Below are positions 7,428-64,000 of a DNA stretch of 64,000 nucleotides, piece after piece. Below the pieces are notes generated by a model. The model had not been told where the DNA came from. It worked only from the letters and a program-made list of their open reading frames with translations, and did not search any database. The first letter of the stretch is position 1. Every line of letters starts with the position of its first letter. The DNA is from Escherichia coli (GTDB taxonomy: Bacteria; Pseudomonadota; Gammaproteobacteria; Enterobacterales; Enterobacteriaceae): assembly GCF_041248615.1 (NCBI RefSeq), contig NZ_CP158426.1, one strand, 5' to 3'. The translations under genes were made by a program, and so were the position numbers.

Positions 7428-8375
7428 ATGCGTGTGTTACTGGCACCGATGGAGGGAGTGCTTGACTCTCTGGTGCGTGAATTGCTGACCGAAGTTAACG
7501 ACTACGATCTGTGCATCACCGAGTTTGTCCGCGTGGTGGATCAACTGCTGCCGTTAAAAGTCTTTCATCGCATTTGCCCTGAGCTACAAAACGCCAGCCG
7601 GACACCATCTGGTACGCTGGTGCGCGTGCAGTTGTTAGGTCAGTTCCCACAATGGCTGGCAGAGAACGCCGCCCGTGCGGTGGAGTTAGGTTCCTGGGGC
7701 GTGGATCTCAATTGCGGCTGCCCGTCGAAAACGGTCAACGGTAGCGGTGGTGGGGCGACGTTACTCAAAGATCCTGAACTCATCTACCAGGGTGCAAAAG
7801 CGATGCGTGAAGCTGTACCGGCGCATTTGCCCGTCAGCGTGAAAGTGCGTCTGGGCTGGGACAGCGGTGAGAAGAAATTTGAAATCGCCGATGCGGTTCA
7901 ACAGGCTGGTGCTACGGAGCTGGTGGTGCATGGACGGACAAAAGAGCAGGGTTACCGCGCGGAGCATATTGACTGGCAGGCGATTGGCGAGATTCGCCAG
8001 CGGCTGAATATTCCGGTGATTGCCAACGGTGAAATCTGGGACTGGCAGAGTGCGCAACAATGTATGGCGATCAGCGGCTGCGACGCAGTGATGATTGGTC
8101 GCGGGGCGCTCAATATTCCCAACCTGAGCCGGGTGGTAAAATATAACGAACCGCGAATGCCGTGGCCGGAGGTGGTTGCTTTGCTGCAAAAATATACCCG
8201 TCTGGAAAAGCAGGGCGATACCGGGTTATATCACGTTGCGCGGATTAAACAGTGGTTGAGTTATTTGCGTAAAGAATACGATGAAGCAACGGAATTATTT
8301 CAGCATGTTCGGGTGTTGAATAATTCCCCTGATATTGCAAGGGCTATTCAGGCAATTGATATCGAGAAACTCTAA
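7428..8375 (+). CDS. dusC: tRNA-dihydrouridine(16) synthase C
   Basis: ORF 7380-8375; start set at [13 protein letters not shown] giving 315 aa; Dus TIM-barrel motifs; matches recalled DusC. Confidence 0.9.
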
Positions 8376-8831: not shown

Positions 8832-9054
8832 TGGCGTTCCTTTATTTGTGAGTGCTGAATAAGTATAGGAAAAAACGAAGCCCTTTGCCGTTATCCATAA
8901 ACGATTAAGATAAATCGGAAGATATCATTCACTTAGTGTATATTTTTCTGGATATGTCGTTTTATTGCTACTGATGTATTGCCACGCGAAACTAAAAAAT
9001 ATATCGCAACACACGGTAATCTCCGCGCACCTTTTCTTACCTGATTATTCCCCC

Positions 9055-12757: not shown

Positions 12758-12930
12758 AAAGTTCTTTTGTGTTGCATTGCTGGCGTAAATGTCAGCAATG
12801 CAGCATTTCCTCACGATTCTCCTTTGACGATCGCACTTTTTGCTCGTTATGATGGCGTCGCTAGCCTCAGTAAATCCTTACTCCGGCGGTGCGCAACCCG
12901 TGCGCGTGAACCACTATCTGAATGCTCATC

Positions 12931-33146: not shown

Positions 33147-33576
33147 ATATTCATCCCTGAAATGTATTAATGAAATAAACGATATTTTACGCGCAATAAA
33201 TGTTTGGCGCATTAGTTGTTTGAGCGAAAAATATCTGGAAAGCAGATCACAGTAAATAAAAAAACCTGCTGGTGAGGCAGGTTCTTTTATTTACTACAGT
33301 GACGCTAACTTGCTGATTGTGCAACATTTCGTACCAACGAATAAATTATAACCATATCCACACTCCATTGCAATTCAGTGAATGAGATTTATAATCCTGC
33401 CCGTTGGGAGGTTGTGCCGGATCGGACCAATTTTAAGTCCTGGCTGCTGGACGGGTGGTGCCGCAGGCGGTGCCCTGATCCGGAGAGCAACGTTTCGTAC
33501 CAACATACGTAAACCAGTATCGACAGGCAGTGTAAGGGTAAGGTGCTGGTGTTGCGCTCCTTAATAAGGAGAGCGG

Positions 33577-52519: not shown

Positions 52520-52600
52520 AACCAAACGACTCGGGGTGCCCTTCTGCGTGAAGGCTGAGAAATACCCGTATCACCTGATCTGGATAATGCCAGCGTAGGT
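52520..52600 (+). ncRNA. TPP riboswitch aptamer (thi-box) of the thiM leader
   Basis: AACCAAACGACTCGGGGTGCCCTTCTGCGTGAAGGCTGAGAAATACCCGTATCACCTGATCTGGATAATGCCAGCGTAGG matches the recalled E. coli thiM TPP aptamer; similarity ends at about 52600. Confidence 0.85.
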
Positions 52601-52654
52601 TGCCAACATTCTGATTAGTATTCATGTGGTTACATTTCTTTTTGTCCGTGTGTA

Positions 52655-53986
52655 ATGCACCTAATGTACAAAAAGAGCGTAAACATGAGGTACAAAACTC
52701 TTCCATACACGTTTCAAAGAAACGGTAATTACTATCTACAGATTCGGCTTTCGAATGGTCGGATGTATAAAAAATCACTTCTCACTGACAGCTATCGTGA
52801 AGTCTCTGCTTTGATGATTGGTGTTGCTCCGTACATTCCTTTTGTTAAATCATTAGCCATCACAATCCCGATGTTTGATGCCTTTGTTTCAAACCTGATT
52901 ATGTCAAAACTTAGGGCTGTAAAAGTTCCGCTGCTATCACATCAGTCGGTAATTACCCCTGCTACATTCGAGGAACCAGCGACACAAGCCGAACCGCAAA
53001 ACATGCTAACTCTTTCTGATGCGTGGGCTATGTATAAAGCGGAAAAGGGTAAAACATGGACAAAGTCGATCTCAAGGGCGAATGAGCGTTACATGGAAGT
53101 CTTGATGGTTGTCTTGGGAGAGACAACTGACGTAGTTGCGATTTCTAAGCAGGACATCAAGCAGGTGATGGAAGTTGTTGAGAATTTGCCTAAGCGTGTT
53201 GTCCAACCGTATCGCTCAATGAACATCCAGCAACTGATTGAATGTGATGATGTATCACCGAATGAGTTAGTAGGAGTGGAAGCCATTCATAAGCATCTCA
53301 AAATCTACAAATCGCTTTTCAAGACTTTTCTAACAGAAAACAAAGATATTTTGATTAAATCCCCAACTGATGGGGTAGTAGCAGCACCATCTAAAGCAAG
53401 GTTTGGAGCATACAGTTCGGCGGAGATGAAGAAGTTTGTAGAGTGGGCACTTAAGCAGCCAGATGGCTGGCAGAAGTGGATAACATTGTTGTTGGCATAC
53501 ACAGGAGCCAGAAGGGGAGAAATTGCCAAACTGGAAAAATCACAAATAAAATATGATGAGGATAGCCATCGGTATTATTTCCTGATTGCAGAAGGAGGGC
53601 AGGGGAAAACCGAAAATGCTACCCGACAAGTAGTGATACACCCTAAGTTGATCGAATGGGGTTTCATGGAATACGTTGATCGCCAGTGGAAAGAACGGAT
53701 TTTTTCAGAAGTGGCTGGTACAAACATGACGAAGATCGGTAAAGAATTTGCTGATGTGCGTGACCAGCTTGACATTCCGTACTTAGACGATTTTGGACAG
53801 CGGAGGCTTTTGCATAGCATTCGTCATTCTGTTTGCTCTACTGCGATGGCTGGATGGGTAAAGAACATCTTGCATCTGCAACAAACAGTAGGCCATGAGA
53901 AAAGTGGAGGGATCACTAAACGCTACTTACATACGTTCCCACTATCATCAATTTGTTATGTTATTGATGGGATTAGTTGGGTCTGA
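52655..53986 (+). CDS. tyrosine-type site-specific integrase (island integrase)
   Basis: C-terminal catalytic box LHSIRHS...GH...Y (R-H-R-Y tyrosine recombinase motif); true start may be the Met at 52685. Confidence 0.75.
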   Translation: MHLMYKKSVNMRYKTLPYTFQRNGNYYLQIRLSNGRMYKKSLLTDSYREVSALMIGVAPYIPFVKSLAITIPMFDAFVSNLIMSKLRAVKVPLLSHQSVITPATFEEPATQAEPQNMLTLSDAWAMYKAEKGKTWTKSISRANERYMEVLMVVLGETTDVVAISKQDIKQVMEVVENLPKRVVQPYRSMNIQQLIECDDVSPNELVGVEAIHKHLKIYKSLFKTFLTENKDILIKSPTDGVVAAPSKARFGAYSSAEMKKFVEWALKQPDGWQKWITLLLAYTGARRGEIAKLEKSQIKYDEDSHRYYFLIAEGGQGKTENATRQVVIHPKLIEWGFMEYVDRQWKERIFSEVAGTNMTKIGKEFADVRDQLDIPYLDDFGQRRLLHSIRHSVCSTAMAGWVKNILHLQQTVGHEKSGGITKRYLHTFPLSSICYVIDGISWV

Positions 53987-54203: not shown

Positions 54204-55106
54204 GTGGATATGTTACTACCAATACGAGTTCATAAACGATTTCTAACTTTATTTAAGACTTTGCAAATTGACGATTGCCCACCGCAATCAACTTTAAATA
54301 TTCATGTACTTAATATCGAAAGCAATGAATTTATATACTGTAAATTAGTTGAAGAATTACGTGACATAATAATTACTTATGTACATTCGAATAGAAGGCT
54401 TGAGGAGTTTAAGGAAAGTTATCCTTCGTATAGCCCTAAACCTTTTTTCGAAGCAATACAAAAATTTCGCAATTATACGTCAAACGAAGGTGAGTTAGGT
54501 GAACTGCTTTTATACGCTTTTCTTGAAACAGGACTAAATGCTCCGAAATTACTTTCCAAAATGCAATTGAAAACAGATTCTAATGATTACATTAAGGGTT
54601 CTGATGGTGTACATCTGTTAGAATTAGATGATGGTTATCAATTAATATTTGGAGAATCAAAGCTCTATGCCGATCTTTTAGAAGGTGCTCGAGAAGCGTT
54701 TGATTCTATTTTAGATTTTAAAAGTAATGGAATGGCATTTGAAAGAGGGCTGATAGATACACACGTTATAAATGAAATGGTTTCAGAAGAAGGTTATGAG
54801 AAAATAAAATCAATTCTTCTTCCTTCTTCTGGCGATGATGGGCCAGATCTTGATTTATCCTTTGGTATATTTCTTGGTTTTGAATTGAAAATAGATAGCT
54901 CACAGTTATCATTGAAAAACAAAGAGTTTAGAGATTGGGTTAATGAGTCCGTGAAACAACATGCTACTCGCGTGGTCAGTACGATACGAAGGAAAATTAT
55001 TAATCATAAATTATATGGTCACGAATTCCACATATATATAGTTCCTTTTACCGATATTGATGTTACACGAAAAAAATTAATTCATGAAATGCTAACAATT
55101 AAGTGA
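54204..55106 (+). CDS. PD-(D/E)xK-like putative nuclease, HamA-like (Hachiman-type effector candidate)
   Basis: 300 aa; motif ELDDGYQLIFGESK (D...ExK); stop overlaps the start of the downstream helicase gene by 4 nt; low GC, island context. Confidence 0.5.
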   Translation: MDMLLPIRVHKRFLTLFKTLQIDDCPPQSTLNIHVLNIESNEFIYCKLVEELRDIIITYVHSNRRLEEFKESYPSYSPKPFFEAIQKFRNYTSNEGELGELLLYAFLETGLNAPKLLSKMQLKTDSNDYIKGSDGVHLLELDDGYQLIFGESKLYADLLEGAREAFDSILDFKSNGMAFERGLIDTHVINEMVSEEGYEKIKSILLPSSGDDGPDLDLSFGIFLGFELKIDSSQLSLKNKEFRDWVNESVKQHATRVVSTIRRKIINHKLYGHEFHIYIVPFTDIDVTRKKLIHEMLTIK

Positions 55107-57691
55107 ACACTATGAATGAATTAAATTCAAGTAAAAACATTCATTTGGCAGCTCGTCTTGCAGATGATGCTTTTGAAAGTGCTTATTTTAAAGAAATCAA
55201 TAAGTTTATAAGTGGTTTATACAATTACAGTTTATTTAACTGCGATTCAGATGTTAGTCTCTCCGAGAGTGATAACAATAAAATAGCACACGCTTTGCGT
55301 TTTGCAGATATATTTTCACATTCTTCAAAAGAAAATCATAGATCATGTGCATTTGAAATTATAAGTAGAATAGCCTTATTAAAAAAACATGATCCTTATT
55401 TTAAATTTATAGGTACTGCTGTTATTAATCGGCTTGGGGTTTATGCAGCAGAAAAACTCATATCAAAAGGGGTAAAATTACCCTTAGATAGAGAAGTTGA
55501 TTCTATTATTAAAAAATCAGTTCAGAAAACAGATGAAGATGGAGTATATTTCACTGATAAACAACATGAGTTATACAAACTTTTAAAAAGTAGCAAAACA
55601 ATTAGTTTTGCTGGTCCCACTTCGATGGGAAAGTCATTTGTTATTAATGCATACATTAAGGAAATAACTCTTAAAAAAGAGCTTAAAAATATAGCTTTAA
55701 TTGTTCCTACACGGGCTTTAATAAGCCAAAATGCACTTAAGTTAAAAATTGATATTGCATTGTATAAGAATGAAAGCCCTTATAAAGTTGTTACGACATC
55801 CTACATTATTAATGGTGATGAAAGTAAAAATAAAGGCTATATTTTTATTCTCACCCCAGAAAGGCTGGTTAGTCTCATAAGCACTATTCCTGGACTAATG
55901 ATTGATTATGTTTTTGTAGATGAAGCTCAAAAGTTAACAACAAAAAATGATTCGAGGAGTCTTGTTACTTATTCAGCTATAGAGCAAACAATTAGTAAAA
56001 ATCCTGAGGCAAGATTATTCTTCTCTTCACCTAATTTATCTAATCCTGAAATATTTAATATTTTGTTTGATAGAAAAGACGCTTCGGTATATAGAAATAC
56101 AGAAGGTGCAACTACTCAGAATATGTATTTTATTGATCTTTTAAATAGCAGCTTTAGCTATGTTAATACCGAGAAAAGGACGCTTGAAAAAATAGATGAG
56201 ATCTCTAATACTTACACGAATACAAATGATGTTATCTATAAATTAAATAATGGTAAAAGTAAAATAATTTATTGTGGGGGGATAGAAAGCACGCTTGAGA
56301 GAACACGTAGCTTTATCAATTATCTCAAAATTAATAAGAAAAAAAGAAAGCATTTAAATTTAGAAATATCTTCTGAGATAAGAAACTTTGTTCATGATAA
56401 CTATGAACTTGCAGAAGCCATCAACTATGGTGTTGCTTTCCACTTTGGAAACTTGCCTCAATCGATTCGAGATTTAATTGAGCATCATTTCAAAATAGGA
56501 AATATTGACTATCTATTCTGTACATCAACCCTACTTGAGGGAGTCAATTTACCTGCAAGATCCGTATTTATTCTTACGCATAAAAAAGGCCCCAGTCCAT
56601 TAGAGTCGGTTGATTTTTGGAATCTGGCTGGGAGAGCTGGGCGATTATCTATGGAATTGTCAGGGGATATTTTTTGTATTAGGGATGATAATAAGCTTTG
56701 GAATAAAAAAGCTGTTGATAATATCCTTCTGTCTGACAAAAATAACATTTCATTAAAGCCAAGCTTCTATATTGAAGACGAAAAAAGATTGAACGATTTA
56801 CACCATATAATTACGACTGGTAAAACAGGGAATATTAAAAATGCTGAGTTCCTTAGAACTTTAGGAGATATGATAAGAATAGACACTCTGAGGGATTCTA
56901 AAGAACTTCCTCTTATTAGTTATTTCCAAAGCAGTGGAAAATCAGAAATTTTGTTAAGTGCAGAAAAAAGCACTGAAAATATTACCATGCCAATGAATAT
57001 CCTTTTGGCAAATAGTCATATTGCGATTGATTCGCAGTATCATGCTTTTAAAAAAATAAAAAGCCTTACAGTTAAGGAACTGAAATTATCATGGCAGCCT
57101 ACATACGAAGAAATTAAAGAAAAATTGAATTTGATATTCGATATTTACCAAGTTGAAAAGTTTGCAACAGGTAGAGAACGTCTTTATTTAAATTCAATTC
57201 CATATTATGCAGTATTACTGTTTCAATGGATTCGTGGAAATAGTCTACAGGAAATTATCTCGGGGGCAATTGCTTATAGAAAGAACAAAAGTATATATAT
57301 TAAAAATACACCTGTTCTTTTTGACAGCGAAAACCCAGCTCATTTAACTGCATTAGTTAATGAAACTATAAAAGACATTGAGTTGCGTGTAGGTTACCAG
57401 TTACAAAATTATTTTTCACATTACTGTCAGCTTCTGAATTATGTGTTACAAGGAAATCCAGGGGCAAACTGGTCTCAGTTCATTGAGTTTGGCTCTAATG
57501 AGCCAATAGTATGGCACCTACAAATGATGGGCTTTTCAAGGGATAGTGCAGTTTTTCTCAAGAAGAATTTTTCAAAACATCTTAAACTTGATAATGAAAT
57601 GAATAAACTCATCATAATGGATAAGGAACTGATCAAGCGTTCTTTCAAAAAAGATGGACTACATTACTTAGAAATCCAATCGTTATTATAA
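55103..57691 (+). CDS. SF2 helicase, HamB-like (Hachiman-type helicase candidate)
   Basis: 862 aa; Walker A AGPTSMGKS, Walker B FVDEAQK, SSP motif, motif V TSTLLEGVNLP and motif VI AGRAGR. Confidence 0.55.
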   Translation: MNTMNELNSSKNIHLAARLADDAFESAYFKEINKFISGLYNYSLFNCDSDVSLSESDNNKIAHALRFADIFSHSSKENHRSCAFEIISRIALLKKHDPYFKFIGTAVINRLGVYAAEKLISKGVKLPLDREVDSIIKKSVQKTDEDGVYFTDKQHELYKLLKSSKTISFAGPTSMGKSFVINAYIKEITLKKELKNIALIVPTRALISQNALKLKIDIALYKNESPYKVVTTSYIINGDESKNKGYIFILTPERLVSLISTIPGLMIDYVFVDEAQKLTTKNDSRSLVTYSAIEQTISKNPEARLFFSSPNLSNPEIFNILFDRKDASVYRNTEGATTQNMYFIDLLNSSFSYVNTEKRTLEKIDEISNTYTNTNDVIYKLNNGKSKIIYCGGIESTLERTRSFINYLKINKKKRKHLNLEISSEIRNFVHDNYELAEAINYGVAFHFGNLPQSIRDLIEHHFKIGNIDYLFCTSTLLEGVNLPARSVFILTHKKGPSPLESVDFWNLAGRAGRLSMELSGDIFCIRDDNKLWNKKAVDNILLSDKNNISLKPSFYIEDEKRLNDLHHIITTGKTGNIKNAEFLRTLGDMIRIDTLRDSKELPLISYFQSSGKSEILLSAEKSTENITMPMNILLANSHIAIDSQYHAFKKIKSLTVKELKLSWQPTYEEIKEKLNLIFDIYQVEKFATGRERLYLNSIPYYAVLLFQWIRGNSLQEIISGAIAYRKNKSIYIKNTPVLFDSENPAHLTALVNETIKDIELRVGYQLQNYFSHYCQLLNYVLQGNPGANWSQFIEFGSNEPIVWHLQMMGFSRDSAVFLKKNFSKHLKLDNEMNKLIIMDKELIKRSFKKDGLHYLEIQSLL

Positions 57692-57999: not shown

Positions 58000-58575
58000 T
58001 CAGCGTTTGATGCCGCTAATACTGGCAAGCATTTCTTTCTTCACACGAAAAACTGTAGCCCTGCCGCAATCACATAACTTTGCTATCTCGTCTGGTGTAT
58101 TCTTCCCGGCCTGTAACATATCGATAATCTTGTTATGTAGCTCTTTGTTCTTTTGCTTGCCCTTGTACTTCTTAGCCTCTTTAGCAAGAGCAATCCCCTC
58201 ATTGCGACGAGATGCGATCATACCCCGCTCAAATTCTGCAGCGGCTCCCATCATGGTTAGGATAAGGCGTGATTGTGGGGAATTATCAAAACTCATAGAG
58301 TTTGCAAGGAATTGAACAGTGATTCCACGAGCCACGAGGTTATCAATCATTTCCAGCAAATCGCGGGTATTACGTGCAAGGCGATCAATCGAGTGAGTAA
58401 CGAGCGTGTCACCTTCGCGGAGGTGTGAAAGCAGGTTCAACAATTCAGGTCTTTCGCTGGTGGACTTACCTGATTCTTTCTCTGCCACAATTTTGTCACA
58501 AACAGGTTCCAGCACTGCCAACTGACGCTCAAGATTTTGATCCTTTGTTGAGACTCTCGCGTAACCAAAAATCAT
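58000..58575 (-). CDS. serine recombinase (resolvase/invertase family)
   Basis: N-terminal catalytic domain MIFGYARVSTKDQ with catalytic Ser, C-terminal HTH; 191 aa. Confidence 0.85.
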   Translation of the reverse strand: MIFGYARVSTKDQNLERQLAVLEPVCDKIVAEKESGKSTSERPELLNLLSHLREGDTLVTHSIDRLARNTRDLLEMIDNLVARGITVQFLANSMSFDNSPQSRLILTMMGAAAEFERGMIASRRNEGIALAKEAKKYKGKQKNKELHNKIIDMLQAGKNTPDEIAKLCDCGRATVFRVKKEMLASISGIKR

Positions 58576-58589
58576 TTTCCTGCCCTCAC

Positions 58590-58665
58590 TTACGTGAAAA
58601 GTATCATTTGAATTTACTTAATGATACAGTATCATTTAAATGCATTCAACATCTAAATGATACTA
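58590..58665. promoter_or_regulatory. res-like recombinase binding site (imperfect inverted repeats) upstream of the serine recombinase gene
   Basis: repeated TATCATTT(A/G)AAT half-sites in inverted orientation (GTATCATTTGAAT...ATGATACA; TATCATTTAAATG...ATCTAAATGATAC). Confidence 0.5.
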
Positions 58666-59125: not shown

Positions 59126-59485
59126 TCATTCAGAACGATCAAGTACCATATATGCTGGCTGACACATGCTGCCCCGCTCCTGTAGCCAGTAGTAATCAAG
59201 ATCGGCAACACGCACGTCCAATCCAGAATCTACACGGTTGATCTGTAACCGTAGCCCTACAGTATCCTTGTACGATAAACCAGATTTAACATTGTATTTG
59301 TACTTAACACCGTTTTCCTGTTCAAACTGTTTAAGGAAAGGCGTCATTTGTTTCTGAATTTCTTTCAAACAAATAACCTCATTATCAATAGCAAAGGGGG
59401 GTTCTGTTTTTCCATCAGGTACAGCAGCCTGTAAATGAAAGGAAGTACTCAACAATAACAGCATTGCAACAGAAGTCTTTTTCAT
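59126..59485 (-). CDS. small secreted protein of unknown function
   Basis: 119 aa; cleavable signal peptide MKKTSVAMLLLLSTSFHLQA; 43 nt downstream of the membrane protein gene. Confidence 0.6.
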   Translation of the reverse strand: MKKTSVAMLLLLSTSFHLQAAVPDGKTEPPFAIDNEVICLKEIQKQMTPFLKQFEQENGVKYKYNVKSGLSYKDTVGLRLQINRVDSGLDVRVADLDYYWLQERGSMCQPAYMVLDRSE

Positions 59486-59528: not shown

Positions 59529-60569
59529 TTAATAACAATATTTTATATTTCCTTCGGGTTTTCTCATGCATTTAATTCCTTCAGGAATATAATCAGTTAC
59601 GGGAGCAGGTCTGGCATCAGGTCTTGAAAGACGATTGGATATAGAAGACAACAGACTGAAAACACACTCATTAAATGATTTTTGATATTTATTTTTTTCA
59701 TAAAAGTACTGCATGGTGATTTTATCTCTTTCGTATTGCAATTCTTTGCCAAGCTGAATCCTATCCATATCAATTCCATTTCTCATAGCATTAAATCTTT
59801 CGTTCAATAAATTAAATTGAGATTTATTCCATTCATTTAAAGGAAATAAAGAATTGTTAAGCCTTTGCCTACAATTAGATTGCTCGATAGCTGACATGTA
59901 TTCTTTCATACTAACGCCAATATCTAAGTATGTGAGTTGTCCAGCAGTTCTATCAACTGAGTTATTAGGGTAAGATTTAATTTCAGTAAGTATTGACTCT
60001 GTTAATACTGCATTTTCTTCTAAATCTTTGCTAATAGTTATTTGAGCTTGTTCTCTTTTATCCTTATCAAATATTGAAATGTATTTCTTTACTATATCCT
60101 GATTAGCTTTCTCGGCTGCTACTAACGCATCTTGAACCTTCTTTTCCGCCGCTTTAACTCGTTGTTCTTCTACAAATTTCGCGTAGTCATCAGTATTTGT
60201 AATGTGATTTTCACGAGCGATAGAAAACTCTTTACTATCTTTAAAACCAAGTTTTTGTGCTCTGGCTCCATCGCTTGAAGATCGGGCAGAACTTGCCACG
60301 AAAGCGAGCACAATGATCAGTACAGGAACCGTATAATTATTAACGAGTTTATAGGGTAAGAACTTCGCTTTAAGCGTACCATAACCCAAAACAGCCCAGC
60401 CTATCGCGGCAGTACTTGCCAGTAGCTGGCACAATCCAGCGACGGAAAGCATGATTACCGACCAGAAGCCTGTACCGACTGCGAAAAGATCACCAAATTT
60501 CTCCATTGACGCAAGGAATAAAAACACTCCCCAAATGCCATAAAATCCTATTTTCAAATATTTACTCAC
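59529..60569 (-). CDS. 3-TM membrane protein with large charged coiled-coil-like C-terminal domain, unknown function
   Basis: 346 aa; three N-terminal hydrophobic helices followed by a K/E/Q-rich soluble domain. Confidence 0.6.
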   Translation of the reverse strand: MSKYLKIGFYGIWGVFLFLASMEKFGDLFAVGTGFWSVIMLSVAGLCQLLASTAAIGWAVLGYGTLKAKFLPYKLVNNYTVPVLIIVLAFVASSARSSSDGARAQKLGFKDSKEFSIARENHITNTDDYAKFVEEQRVKAAEKKVQDALVAAEKANQDIVKKYISIFDKDKREQAQITISKDLEENAVLTESILTEIKSYPNNSVDRTAGQLTYLDIGVSMKEYMSAIEQSNCRQRLNNSLFPLNEWNKSQFNLLNERFNAMRNGIDMDRIQLGKELQYERDKITMQYFYEKNKYQKSFNECVFSLLSSISNRLSRPDARPAPVTDYIPEGIKCMRKPEGNIKYCY

Positions 60570-60779
60570 CGCAATTATCCTTTAATAATTTTCCAAATCG
60601 ATGGTTCGTTCTATTTGTATTATCGACAATAATTCGTTTGCCTTTAGGTAGATCCCTTAAAAAGGAATCCCCCCAAAATTTATAGATTAGCAGTTGTACC
60701 ACTCTCACTGTTTTGTCACTCCCATTATCTTCTCTCAGGTCAAAAGTACGGACTTAAAGCCGTCCGTGTTCAGGTGCTC

Positions 60780-60900
60780 AAGAGTAGCACGCATATCAAT
60801 AAATGATCGATAAAAACGATCAATTAATGGCTTATTGATCGCTATAACCTATCAATGACTATTAATTCAATACAAATCAATAGGTAAAATCGATCAAGAG
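60780..60900. repeat. AT-rich cluster of ATCAAT/ATTGAT repeats with GATC sites (iteron/origin-like or protein-binding array)
   Basis: five ATCAAT/ATTGAT copies and four GATC sites within about 120 bp, in an ORF-free region. Confidence 0.45.
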
Positions 60901-61552
60901 GATTCGTCATCCATGAAAGGGGTTATGTATCTGATTTCAATACAGGGAGTATTAGCGATACCATCACGCAAACGCTCTTAAAGCGTAGCTACGGCGTTTT
61001 GTAGGGTTTTTGGTCATTCATGTGTGTCAGTAATGAACATCGCATTCAGGGGCTTCCTGTGCGTTTTGTCCGAAACACCATCATGAAGGGGGACAGATCG
61101 GATCGGGGTCGCTTCGCTCTGGTCAGTACTGGATAGTTCTTTTCCAGTAACTGAAACCGCAGATACCCCACTAAGTACACAAAGGAATTATTTGTAGAAT
61201 AAGTAATGAAATAACAGTCAGTTATGTACTTACTGACAGAACTAAAAACGCGATTAGGTTCGCTCTGTCAGTGACCGAAGGGAACGCAACAGTAGAATCT
61301 AATCCAGCGAACAGTACACGCAAGCGGGTGCTGTTTAATTGTTTTATCTATGTAAACAATGGGATAGCTATCAAGTACTCACTGCGTGAGCACTCTCACT
61401 AACTACCCGAAACAGTTCGCTTGCTTCGCCGCTCCTACTTTCAGGTAGTTAATTCGCTTTCGCTCGTTGTGATGTCCGAAATTTATTACCTATAGTATTA
61501 TAAGGTATTATTTTCCGGACATTTATGTATTTTTATGATGGTGTTCTGGACA

Positions 61553-63028
61553 TCATTTTTTGCTTTTTTGTACTTCCTTTTCGTATTTGTTCCACATAGC
61601 CTTTTGCTCTTCGGGACTGAGTGCTGTATTACCACTGGCAAGAAACACCTTGAACGCTTCTAACTCAAGCCCTGGGTTGCGGCTTTTCCAGCGGCGAAAA
61701 CGCTTAGCGTGATTATCATCAAGAGTGAAACGCTTTTGCTTATTCTTTGAACCTTGCGGCCTGCCTCTCGACCTCTGCTCATCATCAATACCGATATCTA
61801 TATACTCAATATTATCTGTAAGAGATCTGGCTTGCCATTCATCAAAAACATAAACAGTCTGTGTTTCAGTACTGTCAAAATCCCTTGAAATTCCTCGTAG
61901 TACGAACTGGTGTAAACTTTCGTACTCCCTCGCAACATGTATCGCCTCGCCGTCAATCTCAAAGAACAATTCGCACTGTTTAGCCTCTGTTTCAGAGGGA
62001 CGCATACAAGCGAGCCAGACGCACGTGAGCAAGTGTTGGTACTGGTTAAACCCTCTGGCATCCGGGCTTATCTCTGTGCCGTTTTTGAGGCTCTGAGAAT
62101 CGCTTTTGTTCTTCGTCCAGTAGAAATCCTGTCCCTCAAGTTTTTTATCAATAAATGAGTATATTTTTTGTACTTTATCAGGGTTATTAGTCTTCCATGT
62201 CTTCGATAGTTTTTGATTTTTTGAGAAGTAATAAACCTTTAATCTGTCTTTGAGAGCTGTTTTTCGTGTCAGTAATCCTCCAAGTTCAGTACTTTCAAAG
62301 AGTTCTTTATTGCCTTTATAGATCAATGAATTTTCGAAATTAGCTCCGAGAAAGGTGATTGATACGTCTTTGTACTTACTGAGATCTTTCCATGCGGTAA
62401 TATTAAGCTGTTCCTTTTTCGCATCGGTAAAGTACTCATTATTCATGATGAACATATCATTTTCGTTAATTGCTGGTAGCTGGTTCAAAATATTCTTCAG
62501 TACTTCCCCTTGTATTTCTGGTTTTCTTTCTGCCGCAATATACATATTTTTATCATCTAATGTCAGTACATTGTGTATTAATGAATTAAGAATTGTATTT
62601 TTTATATTAGTATCACCCTCATTAATATTCTGAAAAGAGTGAAAATTAGTAACGTCGTCAATATAAATATTACAGTCAGATAACAATTCAGGAGGAATTT
62701 TGAAAAACGTTTTATCTGTTATGAGTAATGTTTTATTACTTCCAGATGAAAGAAAGTTAATAACTGAATTAATAACACTTTCATCTTTTGGTACTGTATC
62801 TGTAATTATATACTCGCAATTATTGATTTGCTTTGCTGTCTGCTTAATAAGTTCTTGAGTGTTCTGTACTAAAATATATTTTTCAGTACTGTTATTGATT
62901 ATATTGCATATAGCAGTAGTTTTACCTGAACCACAAGGGGCGGAGACATACTTAAATTTATTATAAATAGGTGTGGGATTAATCATTTGTACACGCTCCA
63001 TATTGATTAATGTAGAAAGGTCAGCCAT
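61553..63028 (-). CDS. P-loop NTPase with C-terminal AT-hook (RGRP-GSKNK) DNA-binding tail, unknown family
   Basis: 491 aa; Walker A APCGSGKTT near the N-terminus, candidate Walker B NIYIDDV; C-terminal RSRGRPQGSKNKQKR matches the AT-hook consensus. Confidence 0.6.
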   Translation of the reverse strand: MADLSTLINMERVQMINPTPIYNKFKYVSAPCGSGKTTAICNIINNSTEKYILVQNTQELIKQTAKQINNCEYIITDTVPKDESVINSVINFLSSGSNKTLLITDKTFFKIPPELLSDCNIYIDDVTNFHSFQNINEGDTNIKNTILNSLIHNVLTLDDKNMYIAAERKPEIQGEVLKNILNQLPAINENDMFIMNNEYFTDAKKEQLNITAWKDLSKYKDVSITFLGANFENSLIYKGNKELFESTELGGLLTRKTALKDRLKVYYFSKNQKLSKTWKTNNPDKVQKIYSFIDKKLEGQDFYWTKNKSDSQSLKNGTEISPDARGFNQYQHLLTCVWLACMRPSETEAKQCELFFEIDGEAIHVAREYESLHQFVLRGISRDFDSTETQTVYVFDEWQARSLTDNIEYIDIGIDDEQRSRGRPQGSKNKQKRFTLDDNHAKRFRRWKSRNPGLELEAFKVFLASGNTALSPEEQKAMWNKYEKEVQKSKK

Positions 63029-63359: not shown

Positions 63360-64000
63360 TGGATTTGCCCCTATATTTCCAGACACCTGTTATCACTTAA
63401 CCCATTACTGGCCTGCTGCCGCAGATATTCCCGTGGCGAGCGATAACCCAGTGCACTATGCGGATGCCATTCGTTATAATGCTCGAACGCCTCTGCAAGG
63501 TTCTTTGCTGCCGTTAACCCGTCTGGTTTAGGCATGATACTGATGTAGTCACGCTTTATCGTTTTCACGAAGCTCTCTGCTATGCCGTTACTCTCCGGAC
63601 TCCGCACCGCCGTGTTCTTCGGTTCAAGCCCCAATATCCGGGCAAACTGCCGTGTTTCATTAGCCCGGTAGCATGAACCATTATCCGTCAGCCACTCTAC
63701 TGGAGACGCCGGAAGCTCGTTGCCGAAGCGGCGTTCCACCGCTCCCAGCATGACGTCCTGTACTGTTTCACTGTCGAAGCCGCCCGTAGTGACTGCCCAG
63801 TGCAGTGCCTCACGGTCACAGCAGTCCAGCGCGAACGTGACTCGCAGTTTTTCTCCGTTATCACAGCGGAACTCGAACCCGTCAGAGCACCATCGTTGAT
63901 TGCTTTCTTTCACGGCCACTTTGCCAGTATGTGCCCGTTTCGATGGCGGTACAGCGGTTTTTCGCTCAAGCAACAGCGCATTCTGGCGCATGATCCGGTA
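63360..64000 (-). mobile_element. IS2 (IS3 family), partial; right terminal inverted repeat at about 63360, element runs past the window end
   Basis: terminus TGGATTTGCCCCTATATTTCCAGACA matches the recalled IS2 end; encoded protein matches the recalled IS2 InsD (OrfB) C-terminus. Confidence 0.85.
63371..64000 (-). CDS. insD: IS2 transposase OrfB (InsD), 3' portion; 5' end beyond the window
   Basis: translation ...[39 protein letters not shown]...[19 protein letters not shown] matches recalled InsD (DDE integrase core). Confidence 0.85.

Follow-up and report, generated by a model that had tools for sequence, protein, structure and literature searches.

Closest described systems

The replication origins of Staphylococcus aureus pathogenicity islands (SaPIs) lie immediately downstream of rep, with short iterons flanking an AT-rich centre on both sides (PMC9371898), and replication of the PLE satellite (phage-inducible chromosomal island-like element) needs a repeat-rich non-coding region in cis as well as an initiator (PMC7145576). 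A third point of comparison is the class of small, integrase-only islands with unclear mobilization described by Hochhauser et al., who left open how these islands spread (PMC10121019). Here, we examine a gene-free gap at positions 60570–61552 of a 64,000-nucleotide stretch of an Escherichia coli chromosome (hereafter, the window), located between a membrane-protein gene and a helicase gene. Small integrative islands with defence genes form a family with a common backbone, of which this gap is the non-coding core. It comprises two modules, module A on the helicase side (61067–61552) and module B (60570–61066). We tentatively propose, at a confidence somewhat short of probable, that module A is a cis-acting, origin-like site for the adjacent superfamily 2 (SF2) helicase after excision of the island, and that module B is a control region for an envelope-protein operon.

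SF2 helicases are known to act at replication start sites in other settings. The herpesvirus protein UL9 is an SF2 helicase which binds inverted boxes flanking an AT-rich spacer (oriS) and prefers their hairpin form, and PriA, also an SF2 helicase, recognizes hairpins in single-stranded DNA at primosome assembly sites. Both fit a module which is bounded by inverted repeats and rich in hairpins, such as the one described below. However, these are eukaryotic-virus and host-restart systems, respectively, and we use them as an analogy only, with no homology claimed.

A conserved non-coding core beside the helicase gene

The backbone of the island family consists of an integrase, an SF2 helicase, the gap, two envelope proteins, variable defence cargo and a small serine recombinase. 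A contig scan with a single helicase sequence returned 3 loci only, and relatives were gathered by protein search and contig look-ups; the island loci compared are denoted by L-numbers, e.g., L014 (Pectobacterium), L019 (Hafnia), L017 (Providencia rettgeri) and the distant island L043. In all loci examined, which range from E. coli to Yersinia, Dickeya, Hafnia, Morganella, Rouxiella and Providencia, the helicase stop codon is the point at which module A starts. These islands are of two types, of which type 1 carries module B and type 2 (L014, L019) carries a cI-like/HTH_35 gene pair in its place. The helicases of the two types are closely related, and module A, i.e., the approximately 490 bp beside the helicase gene, is the only part of the gap which they have in common and is kept in all loci compared. 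Its mean identity is 0.87–0.96, as against 0.72–0.88 over most of the helicase coding sequence; in L004 and L018, the helicase DNA is 0.5–0.7 identical, whereas module A is about 0.75–0.95 identical.

The gap or a part of it was found in 84 of 5,426 complete E. coli genomes, on the chromosome every time, and in these 84 genomes no annotated feature lies inside it, the neighbouring genes reaching only the ends of some matches. The longest open reading frames (ORFs) touching 60570–61552 are of 59, 48, 47, 44, 43, 39, 38 and 33 amino acids (aa), in agreement with an earlier sequence-only reading of the window, which had described the gap as lacking any ORF of 60 aa or more. Module A has 62/59/61 variable sites at the three codon positions (p = 0.95) and module B has 69/75/82 (p = 0.33), thus without codon periodicity, whereas the helicase gene gives 214/177/387 (p = 2.5e-45). 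Of the 187 indels, 181 have a length which is not divisible by three. The family has no ORF in common, and only a 22-aa ORF at 60913 recurs, being broken in several loci. Taken together, the lack of periodicity, the out-of-frame indels and the lack of a shared ORF remove the possibility of a decayed pseudogene, which the sequence-only reading had named as the finding that would speak against its proposals.

Module A is bounded by a 21-nt inverted repeat (61067–61087 and 61532–61552, 86% complementary), which had escaped the sequence-only reading. The left box, TGTCCGAAACACCATCATGAA on the plus strand, is near-invariant in 31 sequences, and the right box, which reads TGTCCAGAACACCATCATAAA on the minus strand, lies directly against the stop codon of the helicase gene. 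Both are of the TGTCCGAAACACCATCA type, in opposite orientation at the two ends, and the spacing from box to box is constant at ~470–474 bp. The box alleles co-vary between the arms: GTCCGAAAC occurs on both arms, GTCGGGAAC occurs on both arms in L022 and L034, and GTCGGRAAC occurs with GTCAGAAAC. Between the subtypes, homology stops exactly at the outer edges of both boxes.

The boxes persist where much of the remaining sequence does not. In L043, the left box matches 18/18, the right box and its adjacent hairpin are recognizable and the TTCGCT-type repeats GAGCGATAGCGA/TCGCTATCGCTC are present, while the rest of the interior is unalignable. The same island has a third box copy, such that two copies in direct orientation (ATTGATGGTGTTTCGGACAAT at 7991–8011 and ATCGAGGGCGTTTCGGACAAT at 8878–8898 of L043) stand on either side of one 8xMP membrane-protein gene. 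In L017, the right box persists together with the hairpin, the inner stem of which has changed from ACCT/AGGT to CCCTATA/TATAAGGG; between these and the 18-mer region described below, its interior (7667–8141 of L017) consists of tandem repeats, a 199-bp unit in 2.0 copies (89% matches) and a 96-bp unit in 1.9 copies. In L014–L016, the interior of module A has a deletion of 30–40 nt. A 32-bp tandem duplication (GTATTATAAGGTATTATTTTCCGGACATTTAT), which adds an extra copy of the right arm of the long hairpin described below (61472–61522), is seen in L029 (~8049–8080) and in E. coli NZ_CP062811.1.

Several short motifs which the sequence-only reading did not record are enriched about 5- to 7-fold each over the window background, namely TTCGCT (six copies in the region), GTCAGT (five) and AGTAC (eight). 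The five GTCAGT copies (61026, 61122, 61217, 61232 on the minus strand, and 61267, within 61026–61272) lie in about 250 bp, as against a window rate of 0.7 per kb, and three of them are spaced by 96 and 95 bp. This spacing equals the 96-bp tandem period of L017; when 96-bp units are aligned within the window, motif recurrence is faint only. Two 17-nt direct repeats on the plus strand, TTCGCTCTGGTCAGTAC (61113–61129) and TTCGCTCTGTCAGTGAC (61259–61275), are near-invariant in two alignments and share the form TTCGCTCTG(G)TCAGTRAC. They stand in the same orientation on either side of an AT-rich stretch (61170–61219, 26% G+C), and opposite orientation is found in the outer boxes only. The 10-bp direct repeat CACTCTCACT, which the sequence-only reading had reported, is indeed present at 60700 and 61391, and as a two-copy repeat it could be due to chance.

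The motif TGTCCGRAA occurs four times, in the two end boxes and, inverted with respect to each other, in the outer arms of a long AT-rich hairpin (61472–61522). This hairpin, with a DNA fold of -8.8 kcal/mol (z = -4.3), is conserved; seven of its pairs have changes on both sides, and compensatory inner stems occur in L017 and L043. A stem TAACTACCCGAAA...TTTCAGGTAGTTA (61400–61451) encloses TTCGCT repeats and is compensatory from AU to GC in 3 sequences and from CG to UA in 1. In a nested hairpin at 61250–61306 (GATTAGGTTC...GAATCTAATC), the inner CCGAAGG becomes CTGAAAG in 3 sequences, with double changes in further pairs. The hairpin AACAGTACACGC..GCGGGTGCTGTT (61310–61335, z = -2.1) shows alternation of U-G and U-A in a ratio of 9:6. 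Of the hairpins listed in the sequence-only reading, the long one at 61472–61522 thus holds well and ACGGAC/GTCCGT in module B is modest (z = -2.1), but GTCAGT/ACTGAC (61217–61237) is weak (z = -1.2), and L004, L014, L015 and L016 do not keep it. The hairpins which are maintained speak for a role of single-stranded folding, be it in DNA that has been unwound or in a transcript.

A candidate origin for an SF2 helicase

The gene which abuts the right box (61553–63028, minus strand) encodes a 491-aa protein which has a Walker A motif in its N-terminal part and an AT-hook, and after it helices, in its C-terminal part, and which existing annotation names "DEAD/DEAH helicase / type III res subunit". 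An AlphaFold2 model (pLDDT 83) predicts two RecA-like domains, a disordered AT-hook segment (residues 418–432) and C-terminal helices, and its nearest folds in the PDB are XPD, DinG and DEAD-box SF2 helicases, at a TM-score of about 0.44. Where the sequence-only reading had spoken of an NTPase, the predicted model and the fold comparison point more exactly to a two-RecA-domain SF2 helicase with an AT-hook. Apart from integrases and recombinases, no other protein of DNA metabolism was identified in the backbone.

In the reading which we tentatively prefer, the island would excise and then be copied from module A, which would serve as an origin for the adjacent helicase. The TGTCCGAAACACCATCA boxes would mark the ends of the module, the TTCGCT and GTCAGT repeats and the end boxes would be the elements recognized by protein, and the AT-rich stretch could be the place of melting. 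The hairpins may act in single-stranded DNA or in a transcript which serves as primer or leader. For module B and its GATC-bearing 18-mers, the role would be that of a control region functionally equal to the cI/cro-like switch of sister islands. Of all this, the sequence comparisons show the anatomy, the conservation, the lack of a coding signal, the enrichment of repeats, the compensatory changes and the linkage to the helicase, whereas we infer binding of the region by the helicase and replication of the island.

The sequence-only reading had suggested an origin or iteron array tied to the NTPase and had placed it in a set of ATCAAT and GATC repeats at 60780–60900. An origin of this kind is the best-supported class of explanation. 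However, the key element is a different one: the array half of the gap is swapped for the cI-like/HTH_35 pair in L014 and L019, despite closely related helicases, and thus the array is not the element most tightly tied to the helicase, in contrast to the ~490 bp beside the stop codon, which are kept everywhere. Two properties of iteron origins are found in module A. It lies directly downstream of the helicase gene in all loci, and it contains enriched copies of short motifs (six TTCGCT, five GTCAGT, four TGTCCGRAA and the two 17-mers, and tandem repeats in Providencia).

The likeness to SaPIs and other phage-inducible chromosomal islands (PICIs) is one of layout: an integrative island with a non-coding site right after the helicase gene, which has short repeats, an AT-rich stretch and opposed motifs (PMC9371898). 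In addition, Rep of these islands has a C-terminal DNA-binding region (PMC9371898), for which the present helicase has a predicted counterpart. We note three differences. First, SaPI Reps are self-loading hexameric helicases whose C-terminal domain is a winged helix, whereas the model of the present helicase is a two-RecA SF2 fold with an AT-hook. Second, the SaPI origin is a compact arrangement of 6–12 iterons around one AT-rich centre, whereas module A extends over ~490 bp with long hairpins and end boxes. Third, the present island has no primase or packaging genes. The PLE of Vibrio cholerae is similarly a satellite-type island with a large serine recombinase and a long repeat-rich non-coding region (PMC7145576); the present island resembles it in these respects but differs in that the PLE initiator is of the RepA_N type rather than an SF2 helicase, that there is no sequence similarity, and that replication is known for PLE, whereas it is our inference for the present island. 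As the helicase type differs and the repeat layout is not that of SaPIs, the island is not a member of the SaPI or PLE families.

Several points weigh against an origin. None of 16 full-length metagenome contigs is circular. The modelled SF2 two-RecA fold is not the hexameric type usual for self-loading replicative helicases, and Pfam detected no fused primase or other domain in three longer relatives of the helicase. The repeats are few, heterogeneous and not symmetric around one AT-rich centre, and neither a DnaA box nor an IHF consensus is present in the region. A related helicase, in L044, stands in a different arrangement. Finally, the long near-invariant stretches and folding z-scores of -5 to -8 suit an RNA equally well.

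It is conceivable, although we hold it with considerable doubt, that the mechanism is one undescribed in bacteria: either (a) an SF2 helicase which, like UL9 or PriA, would recognize the origin of a mobile element by its sequence and hairpins, with the inverted-repeat-bounded module as that structured origin, or (b) a new structured RNA of ~480 nt which works together with the helicase.

Structured RNA or DNA-level element

As an alternative to an origin, module A may act as a structured RNA of ~480 nt, being either the 3′ untranslated end of the helicase mRNA (minus strand) or an antisense transcript (plus strand), and controlling the helicase or the island life cycle. We regard this as rather unlikely. 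On the minus strand, the 3′ end would be closed by a long-range stem between the two boxes, and RNase III might release it. On both strands, the fold of the module is far more stable than that of its shuffled versions, with z = -5.3 (plus) and z = -8.0 (minus), and a closing stem of 15–19 bp is predicted on both. The co-varying box alleles keep the pairing, e.g., GTCGGGAAC on both arms in L022 and L034. Pair changes on both sides also exceed the shuffle controls, with 16 on the plus strand (6.7 ± 1.8 in shuffles) and 13 on the minus strand (2.8 ± 1.4), values which 0 of 500 shuffles reached in either case, and several local hairpins contribute compensatory changes above these controls. The conservation is higher than that of the coding flank. 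In addition, there is no intrinsic terminator after the helicase stop codon on the minus strand, making read-through into module A plausible.

However, the two strands are not told apart by these data. The G-U counts are symmetric between strands in the alignment of 31 sequences, individual helices favouring different strands, and the RNAalifold consensus energies are -85.6 and -86.3 kcal/mol for the two strands, with covariation terms near 0; neither the G-U versus C-A counts nor the energies assign a structured RNA to a strand. A search with Rfam 15 at the gathering threshold gave 3 matches in the whole window, all outside the gap. At E ≤ 10, the segment 60300–61800 gave IS102 (22.1 bits, E = 0.42, below the gathering score of 46) and a snoRNA, both of which we regard as chance matches. 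The Rfam search of both strands which the sequence-only reading had advised therefore yielded nothing significant. Promoter and terminator scans were at chance level. For a plus-strand transcript, no promoter is conserved across island types upstream of the left box, and the long hairpin, with its T-rich tail on this strand, precedes the right box, such that the transcript would end before the closing stem.

The manner in which module A varies also bears on this question. The box sequence itself, beyond its pairing, is kept over large distances. In L043, short motifs persist while the overall sequence does not; in L017, the interior is replaced wholesale by a tandem array, with the right box and hairpin kept; and elsewhere the interior tolerates the 30–40 nt deletion and the 32-bp duplication. 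Judged from these sequence comparisons, each of the three observations leans towards a DNA-level element recognized by protein.

The nearest described parallels for an RNA are the ColE1 origin (RNA II/RNA I) and the hok/sok mRNAs, which are likewise gene-free, highly conserved and hairpin-rich over a few hundred bases, with structure on both strands or long-range 5′–3′ pairing. They differ from module A, for which there is no Rfam match to RNAI or Sok and no conserved promoter was found, and which is adjoined by a dedicated helicase.

Transfer, recombination and spacer alternatives

Inverted repeats and hairpins which act in single-stranded DNA are typical of oriT regions. Instead of an origin of replication, module A may be an oriT nicked by the relaxase of a helper plasmid or integrative and conjugative element (ICE), or a packaging site for a helper phage, the island being a hitchhiker without transfer genes of its own; we consider this unlikely. 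The gene content is consistent with it, since the island has an integrase and lacks relaxase, mating-pair and capsid genes, as in the class of PMC10121019, and oriT-only islands are reported to be common in E. coli (bioRxiv 10.64898/2026.01.13.699239). Some sister islands have an SOS-type cI-like repressor, as satellites do, and one related contig is binned as viral in IMG/VR. On the other hand, blastn searches of the gap, including short sub-queries, against 72,556 plasmids at E ≤ 10 gave no meaningful similarity, only chance matches of 21–27 nt in Firmicutes and Borreliella, and a search of 50,697 phage records gave none. The oriT suggested in the sequence-only reading, taken as a mimic of a known plasmid site, accordingly finds no match, with the limit that ICE oriTs were not searched as such, and a mimic of a helper-phage cos or pac site is likewise without a match in the phage records. 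A transfer or packaging site also leaves unexplained why the module is constantly welded to the helicase stop codon.

A role in recombination, in which the boxes would be crossover or binding sites of a site-specific recombinase and module A a cassette or junction for exchange or inversion, is more improbable still. It draws on the sharp homology breaks at the outer edge of each box and on the third box copy of L043, which is in direct orientation such that two copies flank the single 8xMP gene; these leave a recombination role some probability. The backbone also includes a serine recombinase of the DNA-invertase family, and we take the sequence TGTCCGA to resemble the outer part of Tn3/gamma-delta resolvase half-sites. 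However, the orientation of module A is the same in 49 of 49 full-length E. coli matches and in 33 distinct sequences. An invertible segment of the Hin/Gin type was rejected on the same basis, as all genomes are collinear with no flipped copy. No conserved second half-site lies beside each box, and the conserved 440-bp interior is left unexplained. Moreover, repeats of another kind are found directly upstream of the recombinase gene, in the usual place of resolvase sites. These are copies of AGTATCATTT(A/G)A in inverted and direct orientation at 58590–58665, and they look like the res-like site of that enzyme. The boxes were thus rejected as sites of the small recombinase.

Finally, a decayed gene or otherwise functionless spacer, to which the lack of annotation and the short ORFs might point, is scarcely credible and already contradicted by the conservation of module A above that of the neighbouring gene, the coding tests given above, the enriched repeats and the compensatory changes.

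Module B and its repeats

Module B (60570–61066) is the variable half of the gap, present in type 1 islands only and located upstream of the membrane-protein operon. The five ATCAAT/ATTGAT repeats (60795, 60819, 60834 on the minus strand, 60851 and 60876) and four GATC sites (60805, 60818, 60837 and 60892) which the sequence-only reading had noticed are all present, and the pattern is better described as an array of an 18-mer, ATMGNTAWAANCNATCAA, on the plus strand at 60806–60897. Three direct copies (60806, 60838 and 60880) are spaced by 32 and 42 bp, an inverted copy lies at 60835–60852, and the GATC sites fall within or at the edges of the copies. The 18-mer has 5 matches in the whole window against 0.57 expected, a number reached in 0 of 100 shuffles, and the array occurs in type 1 loci only. 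In L014 and L019, module B is replaced by a divergent gene pair, one cI-like (HTH_3 + Peptidase_S24) and the other HTH_35. From this sequence context, module B is probably a regulatory region of the membrane-protein operon.

Two further features lie in module B. The hairpin ACGGAC-N8-GTCCGT (60748–60767), followed by ACTTTTG on the minus strand, has a double change in L006, and its G-U pattern, as read from the alignment, favours the minus strand; it looks like a terminator or leader hairpin. The possible 22-aa ORF MKGVMYLISIQGVLAIPSRKRS (60913–60981, plus strand) is preceded by a GAGGA ribosome-binding site and would encode a hydrophobic/basic peptide. It is kept in the window, L005, L007 and L013; L004 and L012 have an extended form, and in L006, L010 and L011 it is either broken or missing. 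It could be a small toxin-like gene, a status which is doubtful.

The island, its cargo and its distribution

The window is E. coli chromosome with 100% identity to strain KE55 over the gap region. The gap belongs to an island of ~11 kb which is inserted in the thiamine pyrophosphate (TPP) riboswitch upstream of thiM. A copy of the riboswitch is found by Rfam at 52522–52617, of which 80 nt (52520–52599) are duplicated at the far end of the island in KE55. The tyrosine integrase gene (52655–53986) follows directly after the riboswitch copy, and next comes a complete Hachiman defence system (54204–57691) with HamA (DUF1837, E = 2e-120) and the HamB helicase (E = 8e-296). The order continues with the small serine recombinase of the DNA invertase/resolvase family (58000–58575, minus strand), the 119-aa protein, the 346-aa membrane protein, the gap, the 491-aa helicase and a tiny ORF. 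The agreement with KE55 ends at 63360, and the remainder of the window (63360–64000) codes for the C-terminal 206 aa of the transposase of an IS2 (IS3 family); thus, in the source strain, an IS2 landed between the last small ORF of the island and the right att site.

The two backbone proteins on the far side of the gap look like envelope proteins. The 119-aa protein (59126–59485, minus strand) is a small secreted protein with a signal peptide and conserved cysteines, and the 346-aa membrane protein (59529–60569, minus strand) has a hydrophobic N-terminus and is conserved beside the gap. Neither has matches in Pfam, PADLOC or PHROGs. Searches of PADLOC, NCBIfam, Pfam and PDB sequences with the helicase and the membrane protein gave matches at the P-loop level only. 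The helicase matches phrog_2467, a phage protein family of unknown function. A single AFDB match labelled "VirE N-terminal" was set aside as weak, as Pfam found no fused domain in the longer relatives.

Homologues of the helicase number 230 at 54–98% identity in the Enterobacterales, from Citrobacter, Enterobacter, Klebsiella, Cronobacter, Yersinia, Dickeya, Pectobacterium, Hafnia, Serratia, Morganella, Rouxiella and Providencia, and the family reaches Aeromonas and Alphaproteobacteria. The gene order is unchanged in the contigs fetched from Enterobacterales relatives. The backbone is also found at ffs/ybaA, where its integrase is a different tyrosine integrase, and at yggR/yggS, where it has a large serine recombinase instead. 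At these other sites, the cargo differs from case to case, being an AAA ATPase pair, a STAND ATPase, a dual-OB/DUF488/DUF4326 set, or HNH with DUF6998, and the cargo of L043 includes a reverse-transcriptase (RVT_1) gene. A degraded relative without the helicase, L002 and L008 (E. coli NCTC86 type and an IMG/VR contig), retains only the left box region (corresponding to 61036–61133 of the window) and the 18-mer array (60797–60896); one contig of this type is the one filed as viral in IMG/VR.

The island fits the class of integrase-only islands with unclear mobilization of PMC10121019 (2023), which are similarly small and combine an integrase or recombinase with defence cargo (here, Hachiman) and no known mobility genes. 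It differs in that its backbone and non-coding core were not found described there, and no description of the island family was found in the PIME or iOriT preprints or in literature searches by protein accession. It is also not a PIME, a type of integrative mobilizable element with a core of int, alpA, repA and trbJ/trbL as defined in the PIME preprints; the island has none of these core genes. Elsewhere in the window, there are an OrzO-P type I antitoxin RNA (33258–33331, minus strand, 88.8 bits) and a Peptidase-S11 RNA motif (12846–12926, 72.8 bits).

Implications

E. coli commonly carries small islands which have an integrase and defence cargo but no recognizable mobility genes, and the manner of their spread is an open question (PMC10121019). 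One such family is now defined across the Enterobacterales. Its invariant parts are an SF2 helicase and a non-coding core of ~490 bp which is more conserved than the neighbouring genes, and its control region is swappable, being either an 18-mer array or a cI/cro-like pair. If the helicase is an origin-binding protein, this would be an unusual bacterial use of an SF2 helicase, and a core which acts as an RNA would represent a new class of large RNAs linked to mobile defence islands. In either form, helicase with origin or helicase with RNA, the pair would account for the propagation of "integrase-only" defence islands.

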